This document shows positions 2,365 to 58,756 of a stretch of DNA of 64,000 nt, piece after piece. Under the pieces are notes generated by a model that had not been told where the DNA came from, searched no databases, and was given only the letters and a program-made list of their open reading frames with translations. The stretch is from NCBI GenBank assembly GCA_051294375.1, contig CM119263.1, positions 24,966,688-25,030,687 of the forward strand. The letters run 5' to 3'. Both the position numbers and the translations under genes were made by a program. Within the stretch, counting starts at the first letter, position 1. Every line of letters begins with the position of its first letter. Source of the stretch: Paraspadella gotoi (Eukaryota > Animalia > Chaetognatha).

Positions 2365-2411
<47 letters not shown>

Positions 2412-3227: not shown

Positions 3228-3260
<33 letters not shown>

Positions 3261-3349
3261 CTTTTTTTTTTTTTTTTTATTATTCCCTTTTATTTTTTTT
3301 TTTTTTTTTTTTTTTTTTATCTTTTTTCAATTTTTTGTTATTTATTTCT

Positions 3350-3383
<34 letters not shown>

Positions 3384-3430
3384 CATTTTCCTTTTTTTTT
3401 TTTTTTCTTTCTTTCTTCTTTCTTTCTTTC
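1..3430. repeat. Degenerate poly-T low-complexity tract, likely sequencing/assembly artefact
   Basis: Overwhelmingly T with scattered A/C/G and no periodicity. The poly-Phe ORFs are spurious. It lies where the last Ddc exons should be. Confidence 0.85.
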
Positions 3431-3545
3431 TTTCTTTCCTCTTTTTATCCGCTAAGGTTAAGAAAGTAACTGGCCAACAACAATGACTAAAACAACAGAC
3501 ACGAAGAAACAATGACAAAAAAAAACCGCCTCGACAATAACTGAC

Positions 3546-35880: not shown

Positions 35881-38800
35881 ATGCCCCTAAAGTGGAAAAG
35901 TATGAAGTCGCACAAGCTCGGACGAAACAACCGCGGATATCAGCCCATTCCTCAGAGCGAGGAAGAATTCTTAAACGTGAGCTGTGGGTTTTGATTGTTT
36001 TATTGCTTAATTTTTTATTGTACATTTATTTTAAGGATGAAGCACCGGTGGAAAATAAAAAAGCTCGAAGAAGCACCAAATCTCGAAACAAAAACCAGGA
36101 GGATCCCACTAAATCGATGATACCGGAAGACGATTGGCTCAGCAATTACGTTTTTCGAGTCAGTCATCACGCACCACGTGTTTGAATGGCTTTAAGTTTA
36201 ACCGTTTTTTTTATAAAGGTTATTTTGTTTTAAAATAAAGAATCTCATGCCGGAATTGGACAAACTGGAAGAAAGATTTTGGAATTTAGTCGAAGAGGAT
36301 AACGTCGAGGAAGTAAGTTATTTGAAAACTGAAAAAAAAAAAAAGAAAGGAAATATTGAGATGACTTTTTACGTTTTTCAGGTTAAACGCTTTCTCAAGG
36401 AAAAACGAACGGATCCGAACGGATTCAACATTAATTGCAAGTCGTACCTAGGAAAAACCCCCTTGACACAGGCCGTGTTGCAAAACAATATTGACATGGT
36501 ATACGTACACGAAAACTACTTAACAAACTGTTTCCCTAAAAACGTAAACCACTCTTTCGTCACTACAAGGTAGAGGTCTTTCTGCAATATCCAGAGGTGG
36601 AGATCCGCGAAGCCATCTTGTACGCCATCGACGCGGGAAACTTGAGGATGACGCGGAAGCTCTTAGACTTCGCCCGTAAATTTCGAACCTCGCGAGAAGT
36701 GGACCCGAAGGCCATCCCCGCCGGGGAGTGGGAGTTCCCGGGTGAGGAGGCGACGACGCATTGCCATTGGAGTCGCGGAATGACGCCGTTGATATTAGCT
36801 GGACAAAAGAACAACTACAGGTTGGATTTCGTACTCGTAGGTGTATTTAAAAACTATTTATAGACAGAAGACACCTCTTTTTGCAAAATAGTTTAAATAT
36901 ATTACCTTCTCAAGCTTAGTTAAGATACTAAATATGAATAAAAATAATAATATAATAAGCCAGGTACTCTGGGAGTGAACAAACGAGACTGTGAGAGAGT
37001 CTTGATTGTCATTATCTTGTAAGAGTGATGGAGGCCTGAAAACACCAAAGCCTGTCCAAAGTCAGGGACAAGATAGCTTATTTATTAAATGAATCGATAA
37101 TTTTAATAGTAATAATAAAAGTAAGGAGAAGGTGAAGAATTGTGACGATGTAAGAGAAGTAGAAAAGAAGTGAGACGAGCTCTCTCCTGATCCACTTTTT
37201 ATTTATCCAATTTCATAATAATATTATATGATAAATTAAAAAAAGAAGTTCTGTATTTTTTTCCTTTATTATAATTATTACAAATTGTATCGTTCAGCTG
37301 GGAGCTATTTAACGATTTTTATAACTTTTGCGTCTCATAGCATGATAAAAATGCTTCTGCGCCGCGGCCACGTCATCGAAATGCCACATACGCCGTCCTG
37401 CGTTTGTAAAGAGTGTGCCGCTTCTCAAGATAAGGGATTGGATATGTCACGTGCTCGGGTGAACGCCTTCAAAGCCATCTCTTCGCCCGCCTATGTCTTT
37501 TTAACTTCTCGAGATCCCATCATCGCCATGATGAGGCTAAAGCGTGACTTGGAACTGGCCGCCAAAGAAGACCCTACCTTCGACATGGTTTACCAAGAAA
37601 TGGCCGACACCGTGGACCAGCTCTTGGCTGATTTCATCGACTGCTGCGAGACGACGGAAGAGGTGCAAACGATTTTGCAGCACAAAAGCACGACGGAGCA
37701 AAGAGGGTTTCACAACAGCGTCGTTCCGCGGCTGGAATTGGGAGTTTTCTACGAAATGAAACGATTCGTTGCTCATACCTCCTGCCAAGTCGTGTTAATG
37801 CGCGGCTGGTGCGGCGAATGGAAGTCATGGCGGCAAACGAGCAACTACATGGCAGTAATTCATATCCTATTGAGAATTGTCTTCATGCCGCTATTCGCGT
37901 TGCTGGATCTGTTTCTCCCGTTTTCCGGGTGGGGAAAATGGAATCAGTCGCCGTGCAATAAAATGCTTTTGTTTTTCGCTTCGTACGTCGTGTTTTTGTG
38001 CCTGATCGTCACCCACATTGAGGAAACGAAGAACGTGTTTGTTCGCGGGCCACCGCAATCCAACGTCAGGTTTATCGTCGTTCTTTACGTTTTCGGTCTC
38101 GGTCTAAACCTGCTCCGGAGGTTGAAAATTTTTGGATTCCGCCATGCGTTCGGTTACTACCATTGGAACAAATACGACACGATTATGTTGTCACTGTTTA
38201 TGGGAAGCTTTGGTTGCTGGGTTTTGTCCTGGTTCGAAGTGCAGCAACACGATCACAGATGGCGCTACCAGGCTCGTATGTGTTGGACGCCGTTTGAGAC
38301 GACGCTGTGGGCGGAGGGTTTATTTACTCTCGCGGCTTGTATGGCGTACGTTCGCCTGATGTACTGGTTTCAATTGAGCTCAAGATTCGGACCGATCGGC
38401 GTCTCACTCCGTTCCATGTTCGACAACGCACTGAGCGTTTTTGCCATCACAATTTGTTTACTCTGGATATCGTTTGCTCATGCCCTCAGCGCCCTCTTCC
38501 CTTACTATTACGGTCAACGATGGGTCATAAACGGGATGGTGGCTAAACGACAAGATCCAGGATTCACAACCTTTGAAACGGCTCTCAAATCTTTGTTTTG
38601 GGCCATTCTGGGCATGATGCCTTTCAGCGCTGCCGACGTGGTGATTGACAATCTCGACACGAATCCCGAGTGTGGCTTTTCTTCCCATAACACGAGCCAA
38701 TCCGTTATCAACCAGCACAAGCCGACCGAATGGACTTCTCACTTGCTCTACGCGATCTACCACATTCTCACCACAGTAATAACGATGAACATGCTCATCG

Positions 38801-39321
38801 CCGTCATGTCCAACACCTTCACCGAAATTTCCGCCTCTCGAAGCCGAGAATGGAAATTCAATCGGACTAAGTTTTATTTGGAATTCATGAACAAACGGCA
38901 AACGCTGCCCCCGCCGTACAATTTAATTCCTTCGCCCGCTACCTTTTTTCGCGTCTCTTCGTGGCTCGTAAAGAAATGTCAGGGAAGCGCGGAAGCCAAA
39001 TGCAATGCCGAGCAATGCTGCTACACCGCGGACGAAGTCAAGGTGAAAGAGGAATGGACGAAATACACGAGGATCCTCGCGGAAATGGTTCAGCGCTACT
39101 TTGCTCGTCACGCCGTCATCGAGGCGAAGGAAAGAGGAGGCGAGGAGCGCCTCAAACATCTCTTCAAAAATCTAAGGGCAGAAGTTAAAGAATTGAGGAG
39201 AGTGTCGGAGGACCTGCTGGAAACTCTAACTCAGGGAGGAAGTCAAGCTAACTACGATAAAGAATTCGAATTTACCGTTCATCCTTTCGAAGCGGTAAGG
39301 CACATGATCATTGATCAATGA
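35881..39321 (+). CDS. TRPC-subfamily (trp/trpl-like) cation channel
   Basis: Exons approx. 35881-35976, 36036-36158, 36241-36312, 36382-36498, 36570-36820, 37341-39321. Ankyrin repeats, PHTPSCVCKEC, AISSPAY..SRDPI, FVAHTSCQ, pore LFWAILG, S6 MNMLIAVMSNTF, TRP box EWKFNRTK, LPPPYNLIPSP. Confidence 0.92.
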
Positions 39322-39769
39322 TTATACTCAATTACTCATAGGTTATATTTTCTAATCGAAACATAAATAATCATTATCATCTCTTGATTTTTTAAAAGTT
39401 GAACGTCGACTCGCAGATGGGAGAGAGCGATGTCAAACCGACGAGTAGTGTAGAAGCTCAGCCTGATGTAGAGAATGAGGAATTCACAGTTTTCATCAAC
39501 CCTCTGAATGGAACGCAAACAGATGCTGAACAAGTAGAAAAGAGTTAAACTTCGAGCGTGAGGAGAAATCTCAAGGTCAATGAAGATGTATATTTATGTT
39601 GTCCTTGCTTTTTCCAGTTCATCTTTTTTAAATAGAAAGTTGTTTCAATTAACGTCAAATTAACAATTCAATTCAATTCACATCAACAATTCAATTCAAT
39701 TCACTTAACATCAAATTTACATTTTAGATTTAATTTTATATGGTGCATTTACGGCGTGAGTGATAGAGT

Positions 39770-40375
39770 TAGGGGGAAACTAACTCAGTAAGGTGGTTAA
39801 GAAATTTGAATTAAGCACCTGCTCAAACGAAAATTCAAACATTTTTTTAAAAAATTGAATAGATAATTTTTTTTAATATTACTCCATATATTATTTTTTT
39901 AATATTTATTTATAAATAGGAAAGGCTAAAAAATTTTTTCGGATTTTTTTAATTTTAAGATCAGATTCGGGTAGCTTGCAAAAAGTTGTCTACACAAAGT
40001 ATAATTTTTTTTTCAATATTTTGATCATAAGTGTGTGAAAAATATGAAAAACTATTTATAATCATCATCATCATCATTTTTCGATTATTTTATTACTTTT
40101 TCTTAATTTTGACCAAGAAAACCTAAATATTTTTGAAAGTTGTAGTTAAATTTTTTATTTAACTTTTTATGCTCTATCAGAATCCATCAAAAACAGTTAA
40201 GATTGATTAAAAAAAAATGTTATCATTATATAGTAATATTGTAATTTTAATAGCAACAATAAAAGCATTAAAATCTAACTTTTTTAAAATTCTTTTTTTA
40301 CCTAAAAGTAGACTTCAAGACTAAAGTTTTGAACCCCCGCCCCTATTGAATTTAATTTCATAGTAGATTTCTAAT
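39770..40375 (+). mobile_element. ~600-bp AT-rich repeat, copy 1 (inverted partner at 59883-60390)
   Basis: Begins TAGGGGGAAACTAACTCAGTAAGGTGGTTAAGAAATTTGAATTAAGCACCTGCTCAAACG and ends CATAGTAGATTTCTA. Colinear with the reverse complement of 59883-60390, with indels. Confidence 0.85.
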
Positions 40376-41303
40376 AGAGTAAATTGTAAGATTATCAGCA
40401 ACAGGCGTTTTAAAATTGTAATAAAAAATATTAAAATAAAATGCAACAGTAGAATAGTGTAGTTTTAATAAATGTTTTCCCACTTTATTTTTAACTAATA
40501 TTATTATTTATTAATTCGGGAGTTCTACGATTCAATGACGATGTTCATTTGATGATTTGACTTATCGGGCGGAGTGGCCGACGCTTCCTCCATCTCTCCG
40601 CCGGAGTCGTCTTCAATGTCGGCCAGAAAAAGAAAACTCCCCCGTCTCGTCGGACACGTCAAATTTTAGCCCTTTGTAATCGACATTCTCAATTAAAACA
40701 TATTATTAAGACTTATTGTTTCTCAAAACATTCATCCCTTACAATTCTCGCCCAAGGAAATCGTGGAAACCTTTGGAGGATGGGACAAGGGAAGCCCTTC
40801 CTCTTCTCACACCCAAATGCGAGACGATGGGGAAAAATAAACTCCATGGAATCTAAACATTTCTTTCAGCTGCTTTCGGTTGCATTGCAAATCAACTTAT
40901 TAACCGGGACCGTTGTCAGGCCTAACGACTTTTTCCTCGCGTTTAACGGCATCTTTCCTAAAATAAATCGTCCATGCTACATTGAATATTAATATTATGG
41001 AATCTTAAAACTTCTCTATACAATTGCTGTACCTTTTATTCTTTCAGAAAAAAACCCATAAAATTGTTATCCTTTTCTTTTCTTTCAAGAAAAACAATTC
41101 ATATTAATACTCGTTTGCGGACTGTTTGTTTACCCCAATTTTTTTTTTCTTGGTTCATAATTTCAAATCTCGGTGGCTTTTAGTTCAACTTTTTAATATC
41201 AAGTTTTATTTTGACATCTAGACGTTAAAACAAGTTTGGAGTGTGGGACGACGGATTCTTATTTCTACTTTTTCGTTGCAGATCATTAATAATAATTATT
41301 AGA

Positions 41304-44096
41304 ATGTCGAACGCCTTAAGTGCTAACGAAGTGCGCACTGACAGAGGGGAAAATGGCGAAGAGAAACCGACGCCGGAAGCGACTTACTCGTTGACGATAG
41401 TCTTGGTGTTTCACCTTCTCGTGTACGTGTTGGTTAGAAACTTGAACGACCGGTTCCCAAATCCACTGACGACTAAGGATATGGAGACAAGTCCGTCCAG
41501 GTTTATCGAGGAAAACGCGGTGCGACATCTTCGGGCATTGACTTCGTTAGGAGATCGAATGACCGGAAGCGAAGCCAACGAGGTCCATGCCGTGGCCTCC
41601 CTCCTTGCCGAAATCGAAAGCATTCAAAAAAGTGCGCGCCCCGTTCATCAGATTGACGTGCAGCTTCAGGAAGTTTCCGGATCGTTCAGCTTAGGATTTT
41701 TGAAACATTTTTCGCATTCCTACGAAAACGTTAAAAACTTATTAGTACAATTCAAACCGAAAAATGTAGAAAACGTTAAATACTTGCTCATCAATTGTCA
41801 TTTTGACACGGTATGTCAAAGTCCCGGCGCTAGCGACGATGGAGCGAGCTGCAGCATTATGTTGGAGACTCTTCGAGCTCTCTCTCAAGCGGAAAAGCCC
41901 TTCGCACACGGACTCATCATGAATTTTAACGGAGCCGAAGAAAATATCCTTCAAGCTAGCCACGGCTTCATCACTAAACACCCCTGGGCCAGAGACATCA
42001 AAGCATTCATCAACTTGGAAGCCGCCGGTGGAGGAGGCTGGGAATTGTTGTTTCAATCGGGTCCTCAACACCCTTGGCTTCTAAAAGCTTACGCGGAGTC
42101 TGCCCCATACCCATTCGCCCACGGCATCGCCCAGGACATTTTCCAAAACGGTCTCGTTCCTTCCGATACGGATTATCGCATTTATCGCGACTTCGGAAAA
42201 TTGCCGGGTCTCGACATCGCCTACATTTCCAACGGATACATATACCACACTCAGTGGGACGACATGAAACAGATTCCCCCAGGGTGCCTCCAACGTGGCG
42301 GCGAAAACGTCCTGGGCCTTTTGACGAATCTGCTCAACTCACCATACTTAATCAAACCGGGCGGCTACAAGTTCGGCAGCGTCGTTTTCTTTGACTTCCT
42401 CGGACTGTTTATGGTGACCTATTCTGAACAAATGAGTCGAATTTTAAACGTGGGATTCGGGATCCTCGCCTTGTCTGCCATCGCTTGGAAAGTTGCGGGA
42501 AAGAAGTCACGTCTCTCTCACAGATTCGGTGACCCAACCAGTCCAATCGGAGTCGAGTATTTCATCTTACTTACCAAGCAATTTGGAATTTTTCTGTTGG
42601 CGGCTTTGTTGTCCGGGTGCGTGCCCGCTTTGGTAGCTAGTCTTTTGAGCGGGTTTATCTTCGAACCCACGTCGACGCTCGGATCCTTATTTTTTCGACC
42701 TATGTCGTGGTATGCGAATCCGACGAACGTTTTCGGTCTTTATTTTCTCCCATCGATGGCCACGTTTTTGTTCGTCATCGCCAGATTTTCCTCGGAGGCT
42801 CAAACCTCTTGGATCCGAAACAAGTTTCACTTGGAGGACGCGTGCGCCGATGGAATTCAACTTTTGTTTAGCGTCGTCATGCTCGTGGCCACCTTCTACC
42901 GCATCATATCCGCTTACTTGTTGCTCCTTTTCATTGCTATTCCATTTTTTTGTCGCTACCTCGTTGGCTTGTCTCCCAAAAGCTTTTACGAAAACCCCTA
43001 TCGATGCCTCCTGCTCAAACTGATTCTCTACTCTCCCGCCGTTTTGTACCTGACCAAACTCGTGTGCATAATGTTTCAATTCTTTGTGCCCATCATGGGT
43101 CGTGTTGGCTCTTTCCTTCCTTCGGAACTGGTGATCGGACTTTTTTCTACTGTCATGGTCGTCGGATTCGCTTCAGTTTGGTTCGGATTGATATTCGTCG
43201 TCGGGCGTCGGGCAGTGGACCGGGTCGCCGCCTTCATGATGTTGGCGCATATCGTCTTTCTCGCCGCAGTGCTCTTCACGCCTTTAGGATTCGCCTACCA
43301 CGGGCAAAAGCCGCATCCTCGAGCGCAGCGCTCATTTTTGCATCACATTAATTTCGTTACCTACGACCGAAGCGGAAACCAGCTCAACCGCACATCACGA
43401 CTGTGGTTCATACCTTTCGACTTTTACGGCCACCGCGCATTGCAACCGTTTGTGCCCGAATTGCGTGGACCCGCGTACGAGCTTCCCGACGTTTCGTTGC
43501 CAATCAAGCTTTCCGATGAAGAAGAATTCCCGGCTGCGACATCAAGACCTTTTATGCGAATGCCTTTCTACTTCCCAATTCATTTCTTGATGAGAAAATC
43601 ACTTTTGTTGCCAGAGGTTGAACCCTTTGAGCCGCCGACTAAAATCCATGTCTCCCTGATCCAAAGATTGGAAGTCAAACCGGGAGTCACAAAAATTTCT
43701 CTGTCGGTTAAGACCCACGATCACATGTCGGTGATGATTATGCCTCGTCCAGGTCACGCCCTTTCTCATTGGTCCGTCGGGGATGGCCGACCGAAAGTCT
43801 CAGATTTTGTTTCAGGGAAGACACCATCTCAAGATCGATACGGGTACTTCATTTTTTACGGTTCCGGTCGTCGTCCAGACGAGGAATGGAAATTGGAATT
43901 CGAGGTGACAAGGTTGTTTCCGCTCGAGACTCTAGGCATAAAAAATTCGGACGTTGTGGTTGACCTCAACATTAATCCTCATTTCGTTATCGGTGATAAA
44001 AGGAAATCCAAGGCTACTGAAGCATTCCTAGAAAAACTTCCTTCGTGGTCTTATTGTGTTGCTTGGACGGCAGAGCAACATCTCATGATGTTTTAA
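41304..44096 (+). CDS. ERMP1: Endoplasmic reticulum metallopeptidase 1 (M28 family); intronless CDS
   Basis: LINCHFDTV, PGASDDGASCSIMLE, FNGAEENILQASHGFIT, FINLEAAG.GG, PSDTDYRIYRDFG, GLDIAY, YHT. Multi-TM middle region and luminal C-terminus. Confidence 0.92.
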   Translation: MSNALSANEVRTDRGENGEEKPTPEATYSLTIVLVFHLLVYVLVRNLNDRFPNPLTTKDMETSPSRFIEENAVRHLRALTSLGDRMTGSEANEVHAVASLLAEIESIQKSARPVHQIDVQLQEVSGSFSLGFLKHFSHSYENVKNLLVQFKPKNVENVKYLLINCHFDTVCQSPGASDDGASCSIMLETLRALSQAEKPFAHGLIMNFNGAEENILQASHGFITKHPWARDIKAFINLEAAGGGGWELLFQSGPQHPWLLKAYAESAPYPFAHGIAQDIFQNGLVPSDTDYRIYRDFGKLPGLDIAYISNGYIYHTQWDDMKQIPPGCLQRGGENVLGLLTNLLNSPYLIKPGGYKFGSVVFFDFLGLFMVTYSEQMSRILNVGFGILALSAIAWKVAGKKSRLSHRFGDPTSPIGVEYFILLTKQFGIFLLAALLSGCVPALVASLLSGFIFEPTSTLGSLFFRPMSWYANPTNVFGLYFLPSMATFLFVIARFSSEAQTSWIRNKFHLEDACADGIQLLFSVVMLVATFYRIISAYLLLLFIAIPFFCRYLVGLSPKSFYENPYRCLLLKLILYSPAVLYLTKLVCIMFQFFVPIMGRVGSFLPSELVIGLFSTVMVVGFASVWFGLIFVVGRRAVDRVAAFMMLAHIVFLAAVLFTPLGFAYHGQKPHPRAQRSFLHHINFVTYDRSGNQLNRTSRLWFIPFDFYGHRALQPFVPELRGPAYELPDVSLPIKLSDEEEFPAATSRPFMRMPFYFPIHFLMRKSLLLPEVEPFEPPTKIHVSLIQRLEVKPGVTKISLSVKTHDHMSVMIMPRPGHALSHWSVGDGRPKVSDFVSGKTPSQDRYGYFIFYGSGRRPDEEWKLEFEVTRLFPLETLGIKNSDVVVDLNINPHFVIGDKRKSKATEAFLEKLPSWSYCVAWTAEQHLMMF

Positions 44097-44770
44097 GATC
44101 GGATTTTATATTGTATTTAAATGGAAATTAGTTTAAAATGCAACACTCCTTGATCTCTATTCCAGATTTTTAAAATTTGTTATTTGAAATGAAGAACTTA
44201 TAAGGTTACTCGTAAGCTAGTTTTGAGTCATATAAAATATGCAATCATTTTTTTAATCAATTAGCACTAAACTAGTCTTTATTGCACCCAGATTCCAGAC
44301 GTTATTCGGGAGTTTGAGAAAAAAAGTTTGGTTGGTATCACTTTCAAAATAAATTTAAATTATGCTATTTGTTAATAGTTTTCCTCAATTACACATTAAG
44401 CTAACTGAAGCTATTCTGCATTTTTAATATTGCGCATTTATAATTATATCTATCTTTTAAAAAAGCTTTACACAATGTTTATAAAAATAGCAAGTTATAC
44501 AAGTTAAAATATTCTCACAAAACCAAAAAACGACCTAAATAAATAACTTTTGGCTTTGTCGGAATTATGAATTATTGAAATATTTTTACCGTTAACGATG
44601 TCAAAGTACAGTATTATTAATTTTTTTTTTAAAACATCTATTTTAGCATCAGTTGATAATTTGATTTTTTATTTATTGCCTGAACCAATTTCTTTCTCAA
44701 CTTTTTTACCAACAGATCCGGTTTGAATATTACGGCGTCTGGTTTGCCAAATCTTGTCAACGCTTTAAAA

Positions 44771-47053
44771 ATGTCTGCCATTCTCAACTGCAGTCGTGGC
44801 GTCCTCGCCCGGCGTCAATTTGTTCAGCGCCTCTTCGGCGTCTCGTCCGTGGCTCAAAGCAAAATCATTTACACGGAAACTGATGAAGCTCCGATGCTTG
44901 CCACGTATTCTCTTTTGCCGGTCATCCAAAGATTCGCCAAGCCCATGGGAATCGAAGTGGAGAAGCGTGATATTTCGGTTGCCGGTCGACTCCTCGCTCA
45001 TTTCTCTGACCGTTTGAGGCCGAATCAGCGCATCCCCGACGAGCTGTCTTACCTCGGGGAATTGGCCAAGACCCCCGAAGGAAACATCATCAAGCTCCCG
45101 AACATCAGCGCGTCCATCCCTCAACTGCTCGAATGCATCGAAGAGTTGCAGAAAAAAGGCTATGACATTCCCGATTTCAATCCGAATCCTAAGACTGAAG
45201 AGGAAAAGAAGATTCGTGAGCGATTCGCGAAGGTCCTCGGCAGCGCCGTCAATCCCGTCCTCCGTGAGGGCAACTCCGATCGCCGGGCAGCACCTCCCGT
45301 AAAGAAACACGCACAAAGCATTAAAAAGCGCAACCCGCAGATGCGTCCTTGGAGTCAAGACTGCCGCGCCACTGTGTCCCACATGGACGAAGGAGATTTT
45401 TTTGGCAGCGAGCAATCGCACATAATGCACAAAGCCGGAAGCGTTACTATCACTCTTAAAACCTCACAGGGCGACGTCGTTTTGAAAGATAACCTCAAGT
45501 TGTCCGAAGGAGAAGTGATCGACGCATCCCGTATGAGCATTAAGCATCTCGTTCGGTTTTTCGAGAAAGAAATCGCCGACTGCTACGAAAAAAAACTGAT
45601 GATGTCGCTTCACATGAAAGCTACGATGATGAAAGTCTCTGACCCAATTATTTTCGGTCACTGCGTGAAGGTCTTTTACAAGGACGTGTTTGCCAAGCAT
45701 GCCGCTCTTTTCTCTGAGTTAGGAGTTAACCCCAATAACGGCCTAGGTGATGTTTACGAGAAAATAAAAGGTCACGCAAAGCAGGCTGAAGTAGAGGCCG
45801 ACATTAAGGCAACGTACCAAAAGCGCCCCGGTTTAGCAATGGTTGACTCTGATAATGGCATCACTAATCTTCACGTCCCAAGTGACGTCATCATCGACGC
45901 TTCGATGCCAAACGTCGTCCGTGACGGTGGAAAAATGTGGAACAAAGACGATAAATTGGAGGACGTTAAATGCGTGATACCCGACCGTTGCTACGCGGAT
46001 ACCTACGGCGTCATTTTGGAGGACTGTCGCAAAAACGGCCAATTCGATTGGATGTCCATGGGCCACAATTCAAACGTTGGGCTCATGGCTCAAAAAGCCG
46101 AGGAATACGGCTCTCACGATAAAACTTTCGAAATTCCATCCGACGGAACAGTTGTCGTTACTGATAACGACGGTAAAACCATTTTCAAGCACGATGTTGA
46201 AAAGGGGGATATTTGGCGCATGTGTCAAACCAAGGATTTGCCAATTCGGGATTGGGTTAAGCTTGCAGTTTCTCGCGCCCGAGCAACAGGAGCAAAAGCG
46301 GTCTTTTGGTTAAATGCTGACCGCGCCCATGACGCCAACGTCATGAAGCTTGTGAAGAAATATCTGGCTGATCACGATACAGCCGGCCTCGATATTATAT
46401 TTGCCAAACCAGCCGACGCCATGAAGATAAGTTGCGAGCGCGCTCGCGTTGGTCTCGACACCATTACTTGCACCGGGAACGTACTAAGGGATTATCTGAC
46501 AGATCTTTTCCCAATTTTAGAGCTCGGCACTTCGGCTAAAATGCTTTCGGTTGTTCCGCTCTTGTCTGGGGGCGTATTGTTGGAAACCGGCGCTGGCGGT
46601 TCCGCGCCCAAGCACGTTCAACAGTTTCTAAAAGAGGGGCACCTTCGGTGGGACTCGCTCGGCGAATATCTGGCGACAGCCATTGGATTTCAAGAGCTCG
46701 GCATGCGATCCAAGAGCGACAAAGCCAACCTGCTCGGGGAAACCCTAATGGAGGCAGTGGGCAAGTGGTTGGAGGAAGACAAAACGCCCGGGCGCAAAGT
46801 TAAGCAAATTGACAACCGCCTGAGCAATTTTTACGTTGCAATGTATTGGGCCGAGGCTTTAGCCTCGCGCGACTCCTCCTGGTCATCTTTGGCGAAGAAG
46901 TTGAGGGAAAACGAGGAAATTATCAGCAAAGATCTCATTGAATGCCAAGGCCCGTCCGTCGATATCGGGGGTTATTACAAGCCAGACCCTGACAAGGCCA
47001 ATGCTGCTATGAGGCCGAGCAAGGTGTTCAATCAATTGATGGATAACTACTGA
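44771..47053 (+). CDS. Monomeric (bacterial-type) NADP-dependent isocitrate dehydrogenase with putative mitochondrial presequence; intronless
   Basis: 760 aa. [146 protein letters not shown]. Arg/Ser-rich, acid-free ~30-aa N-terminal extension. Confidence 0.95.
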
Positions 47054-47628
47054 TAGATAACTGTTCCGGCGTAGTTGGTTTCGATTTTTACAAACTCGCG
47101 GGTAACAACTTATTAACTCATTTGTATTGAAATTCTTTACGCTCAAAACCAGTGTTTTTTGATAAAAAGACATTTGGCCCGCAACTTTTCAAGATCTGAT
47201 CATGCGATCTATTCGTTAAGTTTGTAGTTTTGATAATCATCTCGTGGGCTAATTTGACATACTTTCACCACTGCAATCTACATATCGTTATTTATTTGTT
47301 ATTATTTATTCTGAATTAACGGTTTGTTCAGATCATTGAAATGGTTTGTTCATTTTGATGTAAATCGAACCATAACGAAAGCCGGTTATGAATCAAGCTT
47401 TTTACCACACAGTACTTTTAGTGCTCCAGTTTTTTAGAAAATCTTTGTCAATAGTTGTTGACATTTTCTTCTTTTTGATCACCTTATTCTAGTGTATTAG
47501 GTAACAAATGTTTTTTCCCAAAAATGCAGATTGCAAATAATTGCCCTACTGCTTATACCATTAAAACTAATTAGAATCTTAAACTAAGTAGTATATTTGT
47601 TTCTCAGTTAGAATGTACCTCAGATATA

Positions 47629-50600
47629 ATGGGTACTGATAATTCCGAAGTAAACAAACTCAAAAATCATCTCTCCCTATTACGTGAGGAGTACGTGAAG
47701 CTCCAAGGGAAGCATAATGAATTGGAAAGAAAGTACGCCATCGCCGTCGCAGCCTCTGGTGGAGTCGTCGACGAACAGTCTCCCGATTCGGACTCGTTCG
47801 TCGCTAAACTCCTTAACACTGTTTCAAACCTGTTTGATCAGGAGGACTATTCCGATATTATGATTAAACTTCCTGAGAACAAAGAATTAAAGGGTGAGCT
47901 TTTTAATTTTTTTTTTAAGCAGGGCGATTTTAATTAATTCAGATTCTAACTTTAATTCTTAATGGATTTTTATGACAGGTCACAAGTTCATTCTTGCGGC
48001 GCGGTCGAATGAATGGGGATCAGATGACCTTGCTGTCGCTTCCTCCATTGATTTGTCAGCCTTCAAGACAGACGTCGGCATCACGCTTATGCGCTGGGTC
48101 TACACAGATGTTATTCACATGCCCGATGATGTCATTGACGTCGACGGCTTCACATTGCAATTGATGAAAGCCGCGTCCGTTTTTAAGCTTAACGGTACCG
48201 TTATGAGTGACTGGTCATGTTTTAAATGCATATTCATAAAAATATTTTCACAGCTCTCAGAAATCGTTGCGAAAAATCATTGATGTCATCCATCACTGTG
48301 GCCAACTGCATCCGTTTTTATGAAGTGGCGGACGAAATATCCGCCACAGTGTTACGTGATCACTGCTCAAACCTCATCTCCGCACACTGGAATGACTTCA
48401 CCGCCAAGGATTTCGCGGCCATGGGCGCTCCACTTCTCTTCACTGTGTTCAAGGTTAGGAAAGAGGCGAACTTCTTCGATCTTCTCCCAATCCCGTCTCT
48501 AATTCTAACGCTACTCTTATTTTTTTCTTATTTTTCGCCGCAGTCGAAAACGTCGCATCCTCTCCATCAAGCCATTCGTGCCGAAAGGGAAGACGTTGTT
48601 TTCCTTTTCCTCTTGGAGAACCAGAAACGGCTTCCGGGAATTCTCAACGACGTCGACTCTCGCGGCGACGTTCCGCTCGACCTCGCGTTGCAACTCAAGC
48701 TCGATAGCATTGCCGAATCGCTCATTTCACATGGTTGCGATCTTAACTGCGTCCTGGATCCAACTGGTCAGATTTAGCATTATTTTTCTCGGGTTTTTTT
48801 TTTTTTTTTTTGTCGTTGACTTTTTTTTTTCCTCTAGAAAATCGTCGTTTATTACATCAATCGATCATTCGTGGCGACGAACACGCTGCGACTTTTCTCG
48901 TTAACCATGGTGCCGACGTTAATCTCATAACGTCTCTTGGACACGAAACTCCGCTTCATTTGGCCGCCGCGTTTTTTTCCGAGGGTATTTAAAAAATAAT
49001 AGAATTTGGAATGGCTTTTATTTTGAAATATGGCCAAAAAAATTATCTAATCTCTTTCAGAGGCTTCAAAGACCGCGGGTATGGGTCGCGTCGCGGGACT
49101 CTTGTTATCCAAAGGCGCAAATCCCAATATTTTTGATTCCGCGAACCATCAGACTCCGCTGCACCGCGCCGTCGCCAGCGACAACGAACCCGTCTTTCGA
49201 ACTCTTGTAGTTGACCACAAATCATCTGTGGATCTTGACGCGCGCGACGCCGAGAACCGCGTATCGTTGTGGTTGGCATTAGAGGTCGCTCGCAAACGCT
49301 ATTGTAGCGAGGAAGAGATCGAGGCCGGAAGTTTCGCCGCCTTGTTGGTGGAGAATGGCGCCTCCTCGCAAATTATCCAGGTTTTCCTCTTTAAATTTGA
49401 ATTTTTAGTTTCGACTTGATTTTTATAAATCTGAATTCTACTAGTGTGTACTCTGTAGTAATTCTGTATTTTCTTTTGTAAGGATCTTGGTACAAGCGAC
49501 TCTCTCCTTCACCTGGCCGTTAAATCCTCATTCCAAGCCGGCGCCATGTTCCTCGTCAATCACGGAGCTAATCTAAATCACGTCAACGTTCGTGGAGAGA
49601 GCGCTCTTCACCTCGCCGCCTTCAAGGACATGAGCCTCTTAGTTGAACTCATGCTGCGGAACAAGGCGAATCCAAACCTTCAGACCAAACCGCACGGCGA
49701 TGTCGTTGCGCGCGAAAACCATCGACCGAGAATGACCGAGTCGAAGAAAACGAATGCGAAAAAGAAGAGAGATCCTGATAACCCTTTTGACGAGGACGAA
49801 GATAACGAGGAAGAAAAAAAATTTCATGTCAATCAGATCGAGTACAAAGAAGAATCAAGTTCGTCGGAAGTCTACGGAGAAACGCCCCTTCACGTTGCTA
49901 TCAGGAAAGTTTGGAATAGGGCGTAGTAGTCTCCTTCGTATCTAAATCTAAGTATTATCAATTCGAAATTTATTCGATAAAGGATGCCACCCACCAAGTG
50001 ATTAAGTGATTGATTAAAACTTAAATGAAAATTAAAGAGTGACATGAGAGATATTGAGAGATTACAATATTAAAAAATAACCTGTCGAATTTTTTTTATT
50101 ACAGGCAAAGCAGCGTAAGCGCTATCGAGGTTCTTCTCAGTTGCCGCGCGTCGCCCTCTGATTCTGGTCCTACCATCGACTTCGACCTTTCCGATTCGAA
50201 GGGCCAAACTCCGCTCGGCCTTGCCCTCTGGGCCGGCCTGAGGGACGTCGCCCTGAAGTTGCTGAATTATGGCGCCGACGTTGATCAGTGCGACGCGAAA
50301 GGATTTTCCCTTTTACATCAGGTATTTTTTTAGCCGGATCTGCTTACAGCATATCTCAGCTCTATAATTCACTTTGTCAGTAAATCATTTAGATCATCTC
50401 AGAACATCTATTTATGATAAATTAGGTAAAAAAACGAAGTCCGTCCGTCCGTTCCCCCTTAGCTTTGAACGCCGATTTCTCATGTGTAGAAACCTGACCT
50501 GAAAATTTTGTGTGTGGGTTGAGAAACATGTGATTAAGCTGGAAATAAAGTTTCGATGGAATCGTCCGAGCGGAAAATAGTTTAAGTGGAAAAAACCCAA

Positions 50601-52952
50601 ATAAATTGACCTCGATGTTAAACTGGATTTTTTCTAGGCCATCGAACGAGAAGACGTTATTAGCGCCCTGTTTCTCATCGAACACTCTGCAGATGTACAG
50701 CGTCTTACCGTCGCCGACGGTCGCACTCCATTACAGCTCGCAATCCAGCACTGCCTCGCTGAAGTAGTGGACGGCCTTTGCCTTAACGGTGCCACCCTAA
50801 ACACCCTCGACGCCAACGGCGATTGTCCGCTTTGGCAAGCCCTGGAATCTGGTCAAGAAGACATTGCCTCGATCCTCGTGATCAACGGTTGTGACCTCAA
50901 TATGTGGGGACCAGGGCCAGGGAAATGTCAGCAAACTCTTCTGCACAGGTTAACTACCGGCGTCACCCATTGGAATCCTAACTTTCCCAGCTTATTTCAT
51001 TTTCGTTTTAACAGAGCCATTGACGAGAACAACGAAGCATCCACCTGTTTTCTCATTCGGAGCGGCTGCGACATTGACGCCACAAGACGACCTGGACCGA
51101 ACGGAGAGGGAAGCGAGGAGGCGGCTGATGGGCAGACTCCCCTTCATATGTGCTGCGCTTGGGGTCTAGATCAAGCTGTTCAGACTCTTGTAGAACACAA
51201 CGCCCAGGTTTGTTGAATGAGTTAAAAAATAAAATAATGATACAGTAATGAATTCAAAATATATACTTTTTCTTTAAATGTTATCTGAGTTTGACTGTAA
51301 ATAAAATTGAGTTTAAAATTTTATAATATCAGATTTTGATTTTTTTTTTACTTCAAGGTCAATGCGGTTGATGCTGATGGGAAAACCCCTATTCACATTG
51401 CCATCGAAAATTGTCATCCTGTCATAATATCTCTTCTGATGTCTCATCCTTCTCTTGATCTGACAATTAGAGACAAGGTACGGGAGTTTAAAACAACTGG
51501 CTTCTAAAAAAAATATTTTATGTGTCAAATTACTTTTTATTACAAGACCGGTTTTACTCCTTTTGCCGCCGCCATGACTACTCGCAACAACAAAGCCGCG
51601 AGTGCTATACTTGATCGAAAGCCAGATGCCGCCGAACAACTCGATAAGAAGGGTCGAAACTTTCTCCATATCGCTGTCCAAAAAAGCGACATTGAGAGCG
51701 TTCTCTTTCTTATATCCGTCCAGGTTTTGTTTCTTAGTGTTTTTTGTAGTTTTATTTTCGTTTAGCTATATTTTGTGCGTGTATAGGTTAACGTGAACAG
51801 CGCCATTCAAGACGGATCAAGGACAACTCCTCTTCATATTGCAACCAACACAGGATCAGAAATTATCGTCCGGAACATGATACTAGCTGGTTAGATATAG
51901 AAGCTGAATAATGAACGTTCAATGATTAAACGTTACGTATATTTGGGGAATTTTTCATCAGGTGCCGACATAAATGCTATTGATTCAGAAAAAAAAAACG
52001 CCTTACACCTCGCCTCAAGTGGTGATTATGCCTCCATCTCGTCGGGTAAGTTTTTCATTGATTTGTTATGAAAGTAAACCAAAACAGAATGCGGACTTCT
52101 CTACAAATTTTAATAATATTCATTTAATAATATTCATTTAATAGTTTTGATCCAAGAGGGAATCGATGTGAACGCCTTGGATGACAAACTTAACAACGCC
52201 CTTCACCTGGCGGTCAAAGAAGGAAACATTGGCGTCGTAAGAGTTCTTTTAACTGAATCCAACATTGACGCGGAAGCAGTAAACATGAAAGGTCAAACCC
52301 CTATGCATTGTTTGGGCCAATACGGAAAAGATAACGCCGCCGCAATCTTTGATTTATTTTTGGAATGCATGCCGAAATATCCTCTTGACACTCCTGGTTT
52401 GTTTATATTGAACGAGATTTTACCATCAGGGGATTTGATATACTATTTATTTATTCGTACTCTCACAGACGGGGAAGGAAACACCGTTCTTTTACTCGCG
52501 TATCAAAAAGGCAACACAAATTTGTGCAAATCTGTGGTGCGTTCTGGTGCATGCATGGGAAAAACAAACGCAGCTGGCCTGTCTATTTTCAATTATCCCG
52601 TGGCCACGAAACAGTTGCTGTTCAAATTGTTAGACATGCTTCCCGTAGAACCTCCTTGGGTTACAGGTTAGTAGAATTGGCTTATTTATACGTTATACCT
52701 GATATCTAAACATTCAAATTTAAATATACTTATTACTTAATCGCGAAATTGGTTTCAGAAGGCGACAACTGCCTCGAATGCGGCGCTCGCTTTTCTCTGA
52801 CGACCCGGAAGCATCATTGTCGTCATTGCGGGCGGCTGCTTTGTGCCAAATGTTCAGAAAAAGACATGCCAATCGTTAAATACAATCTTACGAAGCCTGT
52901 TCGCGTTTGTGACACGTGCTTTGACGTCCTAACTCTGGGATCCGCTCTTTGA
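47629..52952 (+). CDS. ANKFY1: Rabankyrin-5 (BTB + ankyrin repeats + FYVE)
   Basis: N-terminal HLSLLREEYVKLQ, BTB (HKFILAARS), many ankyrin repeats (GQTPLHMCCAWGL), C-terminal FYVE (RKHHCRHCGRLLC..VRVCDTC). About 17 exons. Confidence 0.93.
50426..50575. mobile_element. DINE/HINE-like repeat fragment in an ANKFY1 intron
   Basis: GTCCGTCCGTCCG microsatellite followed by CTGAAAATTTTGTGTG, typical of Helentron-associated elements. Confidence 0.4.
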
Positions 52953-53513
52953 TCGTCCTCACGGGGCCCAATAAGCGAATCGCGCCAAATATTTATATCG
53001 CCAAAACTACATTCCTCCAGTCATTGTTTTTTTTCTGTCACGGATTCTATTTTTAGGGGAGATTACATTTTTTTCTTGACGCTTACCGATGTCGCACACA
53101 CCATCTAGTCTCATTTACCTTTGTTTATTAACCCTTCTTTGAAGCAGTTTCTGGTGATGTAACGGAGATTATTATCACATCGTTATTTTTCTTTAACAAC
53201 AGGTTCATTGCTTTTTTCGCTTTCATCAGTAGATAAAATCCTTTGAAGTTACCCATAATGCTGGTTAATTGTCAGCATTCACGATCGTACTTTGAGAGAT
53301 GAAATCAACTAAACCAAATTGTGTCTTCGTTTCTTTATTTGAAACTATTAGCAGTATTTGCTTTTGCAGGTATTTTTTTAAAATCCTATTCATCCACCTA
53401 TTCTACCACTATAGATAGTTTAACGTTATTAGAAATATAACTTTACGGTTTACCGTGTCATTGTTTTTCATTCATCCCTTTTGTTTTGTTAGGTGAGCCT
53501 TCGGTTCTTAGTA

Positions 53514-54485
53514 ATGGCTTCGAGTTCTAAAAGCCGAAATCCAGATACTGCTGCGGACAGTCCAGGCGACACTTTGGAGGCGTTAGCCTTGGCCGAGTTG
53601 CTCGACGAAACGAAACGAGCCGAAGATCGGACTCAGACGATGGGGGCACTCGGTTGGGTCAAACCACCGCCGCAGACGAGCGTAAACAAAAATTTTCTGG
53701 CCAACTCCCTCGTCACCACTCGAAGAGACGTTGCGCCGCCTAAAATTCCGCAAAGCGAACGCCTTCGTCGACTTTCGGTGAGCCCTCCTCTTCCGATGCC
53801 CGGCAGCGGACTCGATCTTAACGCGAGCCTCGAGAGGGAAAAGCGACGAATCGATGAAGCGAGGAAGAGGAGGAGAAGGGAGGAAGAGGAAGAGAGAGAG
53901 AAGGATATCGAACAAAGGAGGCGGGATAGAATAGAGAGGAGAAAAAGGGATCGAAAAGAGGAGTCGCGAAGAAAAAGGAAGAGATCGTCTTCTGGCGAGA
54001 ACCGATCTCTATCTCGTTCAGGGTCTCCGCGACGGCGAAAGACTCGGGACGATTCCCCAAAACGCGACAGTAATCGCTCTATATCTAGCAACGGCCGAGT
54101 AAACGGAAATACTAATCGAGGGACGAAATCGAACGAGCGCGAAGACAATTCTCACGGAAAAGAAGTCATTGGAGATCGTAAAGAAAAGGAGCGCAAGCGA
54201 AAGAGGAAAAAAAATGACACAAACTCCGATTGCGAGGAAGGGCGTAAAACAAATAAGAAACACAAGAAGCACAAAAAGCACAAAAAGAGCAACAGACACA
54301 AATCTCACAGAGAAAAAGAAAAACGCGATGACGATGAAATCGAGGCTAAGGCGGCTGACGTCACAACTCGAACTGTCAGTCCCCATTCTTTATTGGCGAC
54401 TCCCAAACGACCTCCCTCAAAAGATGACGAGATCGCCAATGGAGAAATGCTTTGGAACTCTGTTGATGCCGAAAATCTAAAGTGA
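53514..54485 (+). CDS. POLR1D isoform-2-like protein with an R/K/S-rich low-complexity tail
   Basis: LEALALAELLDETKRAEDRTQTMGALGWVKPP..VNKNFLANSL resembles, from memory, human POLR1D isoform 2 (AIEELLKEAKRGKTRAETMGPMGWMKCP..TNKRFLINTI). Has an RS-like and KKHKKHKK tail. Confidence 0.7.
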   Translation: MASSSKSRNPDTAADSPGDTLEALALAELLDETKRAEDRTQTMGALGWVKPPPQTSVNKNFLANSLVTTRRDVAPPKIPQSERLRRLSVSPPLPMPGSGLDLNASLEREKRRIDEARKRRRREEEEEREKDIEQRRRDRIERRKRDRKEESRRKRKRSSSGENRSLSRSGSPRRRKTRDDSPKRDSNRSISSNGRVNGNTNRGTKSNEREDNSHGKEVIGDRKEKERKRKRKKNDTNSDCEEGRKTNKKHKKHKKHKKSNRHKSHREKEKRDDDEIEAKAADVTTRTVSPHSLLATPKRPPSKDDEIANGEMLWNSVDAENLK

Positions 54486-54728
54486 CTTCAATTTTCTTCT
54501 TGTTGGTCTCATTATGACAGAATAAAAAATAGTTAAGAAAGAAATGCATTATTGAAGTAAAAAACATCTAAAAATTAGTTGTTCAACATTTTACTGAGTT
54601 ATGTTTTATTGAGCCCTGACAGTTTGGCATTTGTTCTGTTGTTTTTGTATCAGTTTCATTAAGTTTTATTTCAATTTTTAGATGCATTGCATAATGTCTA
54701 CTTAGACGCTTGGAGGAATAAACACAAA

Positions 54729-57632
54729 ATGAGTTCAGAATCTGACACCGATTCGTCGCTGACTCACTCCGACCCTCCCACCCCATCGCCGACGGTGAAA
54801 CATTTGGTCCATAAGTTTAATCCTCCCAATCACCCAAATCATGAACGCCTACGCCCTCATCCTCGCTGGTTCTCGGCCGAAGAGGATTTTAAATACGACT
54901 CTACGCTGGCCGTCGCTTTCGCGCCTCCCGCCCTCGTCGCCCTCAGCCTCGTCGGAGAGACAATCCTCGTAGCGCTGGGCCTCGGCGTCCTCCTGTGCCA
55001 CCTTTTGATGGAATCTGGATACGAGAGACGAGCCTTTGCCGTTGCCGTTGCCACCTTTCTTATGGTACAGTTCTCTCTCGTCTTTTCCATCTTTCCTCTG
55101 ATCTGGACGTCTGTCTCGTACGTTCTTTTTCTACTTTTGTTCAACAGCTTCACCGTTTCCTCCGCCCTCTGGTTCTTCCTTCACTTTCGAATCTTTCGCG
55201 CCTACGACCCAGAATTCACTGTTGTCACCGAAAGGCTGTTAATCGGCGTCTTTCCCGCGATCTCGTTGGCGATTCAAAGTTGGACGTTCGCCAGCTTCGC
55301 CTCTGTCACGTTGCTGCCCTACTACGTGCTCGTCGTGGGATTCGTCTTCTCCTCGATCTTTCTTCGAGTTCGGCCGTCGTCCTTCTGCCGAAGGGAGTAT
55401 GAAGACTCGCTGTGTCTACCTCCACTGGCGCTTCCTGCGGAAGCCATCGTAGTCGCATCGGCGTTTTTCGCTCTAATACCAGCATCTGTCTTTCTTCTCG
55501 TCTTCATCTCATCAGGATTATTCAACGATTGGATATTTTACCTGCAATTTTGCTTTTTGCTCAGTGTTGGCATATTTCTCACCGCGACGATTTTTGGCGT
55601 TCAAGATGTTACTTCCTACTTGACCCACTTAAACTTGACAACCTTCCAGGTCCAAATGGTCCGTGGAATTGCTGGTGGGAATTCGTTGCTCTGCGGATAC
55701 CTGTGGCTGGTCAAAGAACTTGGAGGCGGAAGCGTGTGGCTCGCCTGGTTACCGCTGTTCGTTTGTGTGCACGTAGGCGTCGCGGCAGCCGCCAAGCAGC
55801 GCTCGCGTAAAATTGTATTCGTCGCCTGCTTTCTCTTCGTGTTGGCCTACGCAGCGTTCTTCATTCAACTTCCACTGCTTCGACGCGCAGGAGGTCTCCA
55901 TTTCTCACTCGGCGAATTTCGTCTCTCTGCTCGCATCTTGGCGTTTCTAATGTTTCTCTTGGCAATCAGTGGAATGGTAGCATTCGTCCATCTACCGTCG
56001 CTACGAACTCCGGCCAACATTCTTCCCCTCACCTTTCACTCCGCCCTTTTTGCAGTCGTCGAGCTTTGCCTGTTCCATTCGAGACTCTATCCAGTAGCAT
56101 TCGGTCTCGTCAGTTCCTTCGCAGCGATTTTAGCGCATGCGCGCATGATGCATCTGGATTTGGCATCGCGGACCGGAACTTCGGCGAGTCTTGGCATAAT
56201 CTGCGCGAAAACCTACGCTTTAATGATGAGCTTTTTCGGCGAATTCGGGGACATCTTCTCAACCTTCGTCATCGTTTGGTTGGTAACTATGGGCGCCCTG
56301 TGGATACATTCCTGGGTTAAGAGCGATGGTGATAAAAAACTAATACTCACAATACTCGCGGTTTTACAACTCATCATTCATTTCGTCTTCATCCGGCCTC
56401 TATGGTTGATCGCCTTCGATCTGGACATGTCTCTCGGCGATTGCATTTTTGCTCATATCCTAATCGGCGGATTGACGCTGCGCCGCATAGAACCGGAAAA
56501 ATTTTCGCCGCCTCGATACGCTGGAACGATTTTTTTAGCAATCGCCGTCTTTCTCGTCCAACCGAGTTTGGAGCCGAACTTTCATTCTATCTTTTCCTGG
56601 ATTCGTTTGATCGGAATAGCGGGATCGCTTCACTTCTTTCTCTTCGGTGTCGAGCTCGTTTCGCAATCGAGAAATCTTATCCCTTATGCCTACGCGACGG
56701 GAGTGCCGTTGGCCACCGAAGTGCTGTATCGAACCGAAAACAACTTTGTTTTCGACGGTTCATTTTTTCTCTACGGTTTGACATTGGTGATATCCTCTGC
56801 GCTGGTTTTAGGATTGGTCTCTCCGCTGCTTTCTCGGACGAAGGCACAAAACCGATTTTTGGCTTCCGTTGCGCCGAAGCTACTTGCGACTTTGGTTGCG
56901 ACGGTCGTCTTGACGTCAGCGATCGAGAAGAGAAAAACAAAGGCAGCGAGGCGTTGGGATTATGATGGTCTCGTCGCCTACGACGCCCCTTCGATCCTTA
57001 GCGTCGCCGCCATTTTTTTCCCCTTAATAGCAGCTTTGGTAAAGCTTCAGCAAGCGGATAAAGACATGATTGAATCCGGATTGTTCGATAAAAAGCTCAC
57101 CGCGTTCGGTCGGTATTTCAATGCGAAAAATCTGTCAAACTGTCTCGTCGCCATTACCATAATTATTGACGTTTTGATTGTGGACTGGTCACACTTAAAC
57201 CTATTATCCCATCATTTGGTTTATCTAATAGTGGCACTCCATGCCATGTTAATTCAACCAGAAAATGTTATTTTTAAAGCATTACCATTAAATTTAGGCA
57301 GCAGTAAATTTATAATTTTTCTTTCAACATTTTTGTATTGCAGTCTTTGTTCATATTCAGCGATTCGTGAATCGTCATTTTGGCACGCGAAAGGCTCTAT
57401 AAGTGCAATGGTTGGGTTTTGTGAGTTGTCATTTATTACTTTGTCCTTTCCTTTAGTTTTTTTAATATTCTTTTTTGAAAATGGGAAATTTTTATTTGTT
57501 TTACCATGTGCCATCGTGTTATTTTTTCTTTCATCGTCGTCCTGGGCGAAAATTATCTCCCTCGTTGAACTCGGTTCCTTTTTTATTTTTGTTGGTTTTC
57601 CAATGATAATTAATAATTACATGTATCGTTAA
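54729..57632 (+). CDS. Polytopic membrane protein homologous to plant NO EXINE FORMATION 1 (NEF1); intronless
   Basis: FKYDSTLAVAFAPPAL..LVGETILVALGLG, WFFLHFRIFRAYDPEFTVVTERLL and RPSSF parallel the remembered Arabidopsis NEF1 segments FAYNGRIAIALVP..GGTPVVATLTIG, WTSLQFKWLQLENPSIVVALERLL and PRVSSF. Hydrophobic segments run along most of its length. Confidence 0.7.
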   Translation: MSSESDTDSSLTHSDPPTPSPTVKHLVHKFNPPNHPNHERLRPHPRWFSAEEDFKYDSTLAVAFAPPALVALSLVGETILVALGLGVLLCHLLMESGYERRAFAVAVATFLMVQFSLVFSIFPLIWTSVSYVLFLLLFNSFTVSSALWFFLHFRIFRAYDPEFTVVTERLLIGVFPAISLAIQSWTFASFASVTLLPYYVLVVGFVFSSIFLRVRPSSFCRREYEDSLCLPPLALPAEAIVVASAFFALIPASVFLLVFISSGLFNDWIFYLQFCFLLSVGIFLTATIFGVQDVTSYLTHLNLTTFQVQMVRGIAGGNSLLCGYLWLVKELGGGSVWLAWLPLFVCVHVGVAAAAKQRSRKIVFVACFLFVLAYAAFFIQLPLLRRAGGLHFSLGEFRLSARILAFLMFLLAISGMVAFVHLPSLRTPANILPLTFHSALFAVVELCLFHSRLYPVAFGLVSSFAAILAHARMMHLDLASRTGTSASLGIICAKTYALMMSFFGEFGDIFSTFVIVWLVTMGALWIHSWVKSDGDKKLILTILAVLQLIIHFVFIRPLWLIAFDLDMSLGDCIFAHILIGGLTLRRIEPEKFSPPRYAGTIFLAIAVFLVQPSLEPNFHSIFSWIRLIGIAGSLHFFLFGVELVSQSRNLIPYAYATGVPLATEVLYRTENNFVFDGSFFLYGLTLVISSALVLGLVSPLLSRTKAQNRFLASVAPKLLATLVATVVLTSAIEKRKTKAARRWDYDGLVAYDAPSILSVAAIFFPLIAALVKLQQADKDMIESGLFDKKLTAFGRYFNAKNLSNCLVAITIIIDVLIVDWSHLNLLSHHLVYLIVALHAMLIQPENVIFKALPLNLGSSKFIIFLSTFLYCSLCSYSAIRESSFWHAKGSISAMVGFCELSFITLSFPLVFLIFFFENGKFLFVLPCAIVLFFLSSSSWAKIISLVELGSFFIFVGFPMIINNYMYR

Positions 57633-57904
57633 TGTTGTTATAGATGCTTTTAAGTTATGTTTTTATGCGTTTTACATAAAAGGGTAAAAACTGATACTTG
57701 TTATACTTAAAATAAACTTATTATTTAAACAATTTCTTAAGCTAGATATCTTGCTCGATATATGTAGTGTTAATCATTCGTCACATATTTTAGTCAAGCA
57801 GGCTCAGAAAGTAACGAATAAGCAAAAGAGCTTTTTGCTGAATGCGTACCGTCGCTGAAGGCATGGAAATTAGAAAGTAGGCTTGTCCGATGCAGCCCTA
57901 AAAG

Positions 57905-58756
57905 ATGAGCGATATGCCGCCAGGGAAGAACCAGGTTGACCGTCAAGTATTGATGGGTCCCCACGGGGATGTCAAGATGAAGCTTGACAAATCGGCCAAG
58001 ATCCACGATGACGGGGAGAGAATGTGCGACGAAAGTGGATACGAATCGGATCGAAAGTCATCGTCGTCGCCCGGCCTAGTAGAGATGCCGCCGCTATTCG
58101 GTTCGGTGGGACCCCCGGCACCGATCGCTACTCCCTGCTCCGGTCCTTCCCCTATGCAGGCACCTCCAAGTCTGTTACCGCTTCCCGAAACCAAAAACGA
58201 GGAAGGACTTTTTGCCGGGGAATCCTACCTAAAATTTTTGGAACTTCGGTCCCAGAATCAGATGGGATTTTGGAACACCACCAAATCAGGTCCTCTTCCA
58301 CCGGTAGTTCTTCCTCTACCGATTTGCTGCAAGGCATCGCCGCTCGGTCCAAAACAGGTTATTTCGAAACATGACAAATAATTATCTGTGCATATTTTTT
58401 TCATATTGATAATTTGTACATATTGGTTTTAGTGGTTTTACTGATAGTTGTTTCTTGACTCTTCCAATGCTTTTTGTAAGGCAAGAAGATACTCCATTCC
58501 TAAGTACGCCGTCGGTTTCGTCATCGGACCCAACGGTTATCGCATTCAAGCTTCACGCGACGTCAGCGGCGCCAACATCCTCCTCCTCGGAGATCAAGAC
58601 GTTCACCACGCCTACATCGGCGTCTTCGGTACCGAAGAACAGATACACGACGCCGTTTACCTCATGAAGCTCAATATCCTCCGTCACTCGGGGATGTTTA
58701 TTGGCGATATCGACGGCATGTTGAAACTAGTCCCAGATTCGGACCCGATACTGTGA
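57905..58756 (+). CDS. Small single-KH-domain RNA-binding protein
   Basis: Exons 57905-58357 and 58481-58756 (GT-AG, phase 0). KH motif IPKYAVGFVIGPNGYRIQASRDVSGANI..FGTEEQIHDA. Confidence 0.8.

Follow-up and report, generated by a model that had tools for sequence, protein, structure and literature searches.

The nuclear genome of the arrow worm Paraspadella gotoi (Chaetognatha) carries and transcribes an intact gene for a type III, or monomeric-type, isocitrate dehydrogenase (IDH), which lies between ERMP1 and an ANKFY1-like gene in an operon layout. Its nearest relatives occur in calanoid copepods and other plankton, not in bacteria, so the gene likely moved between plankton lineages; our preferred reading (probability about 0.6) is of spread through transfers between eukaryotes of the marine plankton and not of direct acquisition from a bacterium. 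In the available part of PMC8287583, type III IDH is restricted to prokaryotes and some microbial eukaryotes; the diatom enzyme is called the first eukaryotic member, and 17 microbial eukaryotes and no animal are listed. We found no report of an animal type III IDH in the literature searched, whose coverage stopped short of subscription journals and bioRxiv supplements. The chaetognath genome paper (main text and three supplements) makes no mention of isocitrate, IDH or HGT, and type III IDH is not mentioned in the accessible portions of two choanoflagellate gene-family papers (PMC6040629, 12 of 16 supplements; PMC6792448, supplement only). A calanoid with two EC 1.1.1.42 genes has been described, their type not named in the accessible portion of the source (PMC7700397). 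We analyzed a window of 64,000 nucleotides (contig CM119263.1 of assembly GCA_051294375.1, positions 24,966,688 to 25,030,687 of the forward strand); coordinates below are window positions, and the ERMP1, IDH and ANKFY1-like features lie on its plus strand.

The IDH gene is a single uninterrupted open reading frame (ORF) of 760 aa (44771-47053). Pfam PF03971 spans residues 31-758 (1153 bits) and NCBIfam TIGR00178 matches at 1102 bits (cut-off 950); its length (family ~740 aa) and its profile scores above cut-off place it in type III. Every monomeric-IDH motif named in an earlier sequence-only reading of this DNA was found, which bears out its description of an intact gene of this family. The AlphaFold model (pLDDT 87, pTM 0.84) has the two-domain monomeric-IDH fold and superimposes on the Azotobacter vinelandii structure 1itw with TM 0.93, rmsd 1.8 and 57-58% identity. 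Profiles, alignment and fold delimit the type III NADP-IDH catalytic chain to residues 31-760 (44861..47053). Alignment to Azotobacter IDH, with the Azotobacter numbering of its ten substrate and metal ligands, places these ligands at S158, N161, R165, R171, K283, D376, Y446, R573, D574 and D578, and they are kept in 141-142 of the 142 members scored of the plankton clade defined below. The NADP-type residues K614, H615, R626 and R675 are also present. Cofactor specificity is ascribed to His589, Arg600 and Arg649 in Azotobacter numbering (PMC8287583, available part), which in our own reading of the alignment correspond to H615, R626 and R675; their equivalents are conserved in 142/142 clade members. 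The sequence-only reading had correctly called the His/Arg/Arg set intact but assigned its third member to the motif DNR: Azotobacter R649 equals P. tricornutum R664 and, here, R675 in PGRK, the DNR arginine being conserved too. From the conserved residues and the model, we predict that the 730-aa chain adopts the Azotobacter IDH fold, that each chain holds a single active site of NADP type, and that it would oxidise isocitrate with NADP+ and Mn/Mg to 2-oxoglutarate, CO2 and NADPH.

The A. vinelandii monomeric NADP-IDH (1ITW/1J1W) shares the fold, the ten ligand residues and the His/Arg/Arg equivalents, whereas the arrow-worm gene is an animal nuclear gene in a trans-spliced cluster, with a 30-aa presequence, a 3-aa insertion and a 6-aa deletion. 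PtIDH2 of Phaeodactylum tricornutum is likewise a eukaryotic type III enzyme that has a targeting peptide at its N-terminus and keeps the NADP-type His/Arg/Arg, but it is predicted to be plastidic and is a homotetramer; both dimers and tetramers are known within the family (available part of PMC8287583). Animal mitochondrial IDH2 (type II, homodimer) has the same predicted reaction, cofactor and compartment. The arrow-worm enzyme may supplement or replace IDH2, as the sequence-only reading proposed. Type II enzymes are structurally distant (human IDH1 and mouse and pig mitochondrial IDH, TM ~0.3, 12-15% structural-alignment identity), and none appeared among the sequence matches to solved structures.

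The first 30 residues (44771..44860) form a basic presequence with 4 Arg, 0 Asp/Glu and a net charge of +4, matching the acid-free, Arg-bearing extension of mitochondrial type recognized earlier. Composition, low model confidence (pLDDT < 50 over residues 1-25) and the relatives point to a mitochondrial targeting peptide: Met-started extensions of at least 20 aa occur in 109/138 close relatives, with acidic residues at only 11/3547 positions. Its hydrophobic moment does not exceed that of shuffled sequences (2913/5000 reached it). The product is thus predicted, from its presequence, to enter mitochondria, where the 30 residues would be removed upon import. Mitochondrial-type extensions were found in most of the 120 protist copies from a profile search, and since presequences are this common among protists, targeting probably need not have been gained in the arrow worm. 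Four proteins of the calanoid group (P0083, P0087, P0115, P0117) start just before KIIYT, and calanoid-group locus L082 (1-200) has an in-frame stop upstream; judging from these sequences, copepods may also have a presequence-free, possibly cytosolic form.

Both flanking genes agree with those named by the sequence-only reading. The ERMP1 transcript (41282..44716; X8 contig and Pfam) receives a leader at 41282, contains a single 930-aa ORF (41304-44096; Peptidase_M28, ERMP1_C and ERMP1-TM domains) and is polyadenylated after 44716; its X8 contig bears a 23-nt foreign leader and a 27-nt A-rich tail. A polypyrimidine tract with AG (44690..44715) forms the trans-splice acceptor of IDH, whose X8 contig starts at 44716 with a 25-nt leader, runs through a 5' UTR lacking any upstream ATG (44716..44770) and ends at 47607, so covering a 3' UTR (47054..47607) that extends to the next acceptor. 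The ANKFY1-like gene (47608..52952; leader, spliced joints and Pfam), named from our own reading of its domain order (ankyrin repeats, then FYVE), starts in X8 at 47608 with a 23-nt leader and has 15 listed joints, 14 of which read as GT..AG. X8 thus divides the region into three contigs, one per gene, X6 contig breaks agree with these boundaries, and a polypyrimidine tract plus AG precedes each leader-joining site. Compared by eye with the chaetognath SL2.0 leader (PMC2481426 Table 3, available part), the ERMP1, IDH and ANKFY1 leaders match at 20/23, 23/25 and 23/23 positions, which identifies the X8 host as a chaetognath. The leaders at 41282, 44716 and 47608 differ slightly from one another within this one run, and two of them depart from the listed SL2 variants.

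In the contigs of this run, the downstream genes carry leaders and the ERMP1 poly(A) site falls at the IDH acceptor, and ERMP1-IDH-ANKFY1 is therefore laid out as an operon. A single polycistronic precursor is likely; it would be cut at 44716, with ERMP1 polyadenylated there and the spliced leader joined to the IDH message. Published chaetognath operons show the same SL2-type leaders, and in them too the poly(A) site of one gene adjoins the acceptor of the next, at a distance of three bases in the RP S14-PCNA operon (available parts of PMC2481426 and PMC12460157); unlike them, this cluster has as its middle gene an enzyme of a family undescribed in animals in the literature searched. Contigs from three studies join IDH to its neighbors, as expected of a locus that is not chimeric: X1 (possibly the source sample, 40940-46463) joins ERMP1 and IDH, X5 (second study, 41282-47892) spans all three genes and continues through spliced ANKFY1 exons, being a contig and not a transcript, and X9 (third study, introns retained, 44679-47692) joins IDH to the ANKFY1 start. 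Expression, another check proposed earlier, is evident from the leader-bearing IDH message in RNA-derived contigs (X5, X6 and X8 were judged such by spliced joints, X8 also by its leaders and A-tail). Two other organisms (X10, X11) each have a colinear IDH copy on one 2.6-kb contig, ~80% alike in blocks and with a similar presequence end, along with short ANKFY1 pieces at ≥80%.

The best 120 of 8000 scored proteins comprised seven at 82-84% and 113 at 74-77% identity to the arrow-worm IDH. Proteins P0001-P0007 group with it and are assigned to chaetognaths solely by tree position and presequence likeness. Calanoid hosts are indicated by the named record P0313 (Neocalanus flemingeri) and by L081 and L083, two of the 80 metagenomic loci collected, which begin with the published calanoid spliced leader (PMC4664967 Table 1). 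Neocalanus is the only named animal among the matches listed and the 30 clusters looked up. Chaetognath and calanoid copies share 74-78% identity, and two calanoid copies share 78% with each other. A further pair, L084 (also metagenomic) and L158, is AT-rich and reads TAA/TAG as Gln, as in the ciliate-type code: across ten reference proteins, these codons align most often with Gln (67 and 88 times, respectively). These copies are ~74% identical to the window IDH and 70-76% to the animal copies; no named ciliate occurred among the 120 best matches to L084. The profile search for protist copies returned at least 120 proteins at 58-65% identity, from hosts including Spumella, Ochromonas, Mallomonas, Ectocarpus, a diatom and the choanoflagellate Salpingoeca urceolata. 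Bacterial copies reached 55-63% (best 80 of 598 confirmed GTDB matches, from 7/64 parts scanned), and in another comparison identity was 62% to bacteria and 60-63% to protists. A protein atlas search returned generic diatom and bacterial clusters only. Fragments of genomic sequence suggest that calanoid copies and further chaetognath-like ones contain introns, so the gene has probably long been resident there; an intron at residue 720 shared by calanoids and the P0085 group was considered and rejected, as the fragment start proved to be an exonic Met. A viral vector was likewise unsupported (one locus at 54% among 11 pattern matches).

We built trees of 62, 85, 44 and 28 rows thinned by identity, most with only 4-8 bacterial rows; the careful tree used LG+G4 on 28 rows chosen from the 85, and the C20 model was applied to a quick tree only. 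In the careful tree the window IDH and P0001-P0007 have the calanoid group as sister (97/97). Together with the ciliate-code pair and several further groups they form a plankton clade (100/100) on a long stem, which falls among protist type III IDHs; eukaryotes and prokaryotes are split at 100/100. The other three trees recover these groups as well, and all trees unite the plankton clade with protists at 99-100. Forcing the chaetognath group to join bacteria (p-AU 8e-34) or choanoflagellates (p-AU 4e-53) was rejected. Forcing the whole clade was not rejected with either the choanoflagellate group (p-AU 0.84 quick, 0.15 careful) or bacteria (0.71 quick, 0.43 careful), the quick values being weak because the free search scored worse than the constrained ones. 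In the C20 quick tree, the clade and the choanoflagellate group share an open fork (support 87). Mean path length is 0.36 among calanoid copies; measured from the chaetognath copies, it is 0.65 for calanoids, 0.78 for the ciliate-code pair and 1.42 for the choanoflagellate group. An indel census provided two further markers. An insertion of 3-4 aa within residues 172-205 (45284..45385) marks the plankton clade, being present in 143/143 members and 0/120 protist matches, with 75/77 GTDB copies at -3. A 6-aa deletion within residues 693-733 (46847..46969) is common to protist copies: it occurs in 143/143 clade members and 112/120 protists (the other 8 at +1) and in 0/74 scoreable GTDB copies, the six residues being present in 73/77.

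The sequence-only reading had taken the gene for a bacterial one that this animal domesticated. The closest relatives are instead eukaryotic (74-84% identity versus 55-63% for bacteria), and direct passage from a bacterium to the arrow worm is rejected by the AU test on bacterial grouping and is at odds with the deletion common to protists. Being intronless does not point to transfer at this locus, since the window has other single-ORF genes, namely ERMP1 (930 aa) and a TRP channel (693 aa). We also find it improbable that the whole clade goes back to its own transfer from bacteria into a single plankton eukaryote or animal, followed by spread. The clade's long stem, the bacterial constraint left standing by the AU tests and an identity to bacteria (62%) like that to protists (60-63%) fit such an event; the deletion seen in protists and lacking in 74/74 scoreable GTDB copies, and the grouping with protists at 99-100 in all trees, speak against it. 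Contamination or a chimera, from a bacterium, prey or symbiont, deserves next to no weight: the animal's prey group is among the nearest kin, but bridging contigs come from three studies, the IDH message bears a chaetognath leader, two other organisms have copies, and GC3 (0.59) resembles that of the neighbor genes (0.56 and 0.60). Codon usage could not tell host from foreign loci (r 0.56 against the pooled host ORFs; up to 0.68 for some of 149 foreign loci, median 0.22).

The contigs and leaders uphold a non-contaminant animal gene. The trees show neither direct bacterial kinship nor, among the matches listed, a broad, vertically inherited metazoan clade. Inheritance could nonetheless have produced the observed pattern if a holozoan ancestor had a mitochondrial type III IDH that persisted in chaetognaths, calanoids and a handful of further plankton animals, disappeared elsewhere, and escaped once into ciliate-code protists; we judge this unlikely, yet a serious contender. 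It stays live because the choanoflagellate S. urceolata has the enzyme and because Sphaeroforma, which we take to be an ichthyosporean, is listed as having it. That list files Sphaeroforma under Alveolata (PMC8287583, available part). The AU tests did not reject the plankton clade with choanoflagellates; in one quick tree, a branch (support 18) sets the clade minus the rows reading TAR as Gln apart from all else, and the implied introns suggest long residence. Identity of ~75% is ordinary for a conserved mitochondrial enzyme across protostomes, which also favors inheritance. To our knowledge, however, many independent losses in well-sequenced animals would be needed, and Neocalanus stands alone as a named animal among the matches listed and clusters looked up. 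Moreover, chaetognath-calanoid identity overlaps that between calanoids, and ciliate-code copies are about as close.

Transfer among plankton eukaryotes is favored because the chaetognath-calanoid path (0.65) is under twice that within calanoids (0.36) and near the ciliate-code path (0.78), and because the only named animal among the matches listed is a calanoid. If the ciliate-code hosts are indeed ciliates, the non-animal genetic code inside the clade means that the gene crossed between kingdoms at least once. The plankton clade, now in chaetognaths, calanoids, ciliate-code organisms and several other hosts, would have sprung from a protist-type type III IDH that was already targeted to mitochondria. 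Chaetognaths eat copepods and copepods eat ciliates, which makes a food-chain or symbiont route plausible. The fuller scenario is speculative and, taken whole, rather improbable: a core mitochondrial enzyme would have climbed the food chain of the plankton, reaching calanoids from ciliates or another protist group and then arrow worms from calanoids (animal to animal, across phyla), where trans-splicing drew the gene into a housekeeping operon and the enzyme assumed the role of IDH2. Type III IDH is now found in two abundant zooplankton groups that belong to different phyla. Either a gene of central metabolism passed between the lineages of a predator and its prey, which is rarely documented for animals, or an additional IDH of ancestral animals was lost in most lineages. 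If the gene did arrive by transfer, the locus exemplifies how trans-splicing can give an incoming gene expression without its own promoter. Transcriptome annotation of copepods and chaetognaths may miss this IDH or discard it as bacterial.

Elsewhere in the window, three more plus-strand genes follow ANKFY1 at 53493-58756: a Lys/Arg-rich ORF, a hydrophobic single ORF of 989 aa with no Pfam match, and a KH-domain gene. Acceptor-like sequence lies upstream of the first two, and the X5 contig is 16604 nt long; the operon may continue beyond ANKFY1. Upstream of ERMP1, a single-ORF TRP-type channel gene (PF08344 and PF00520; 693 aa stop to stop) occupies 37240-39321. The stretches 39680-40400 and 50350-50560 are high-copy repeats, over which the summed contig depth is very high, and positions 1-3500 form a very T-rich, repeat-like stretch of ~10% GC.
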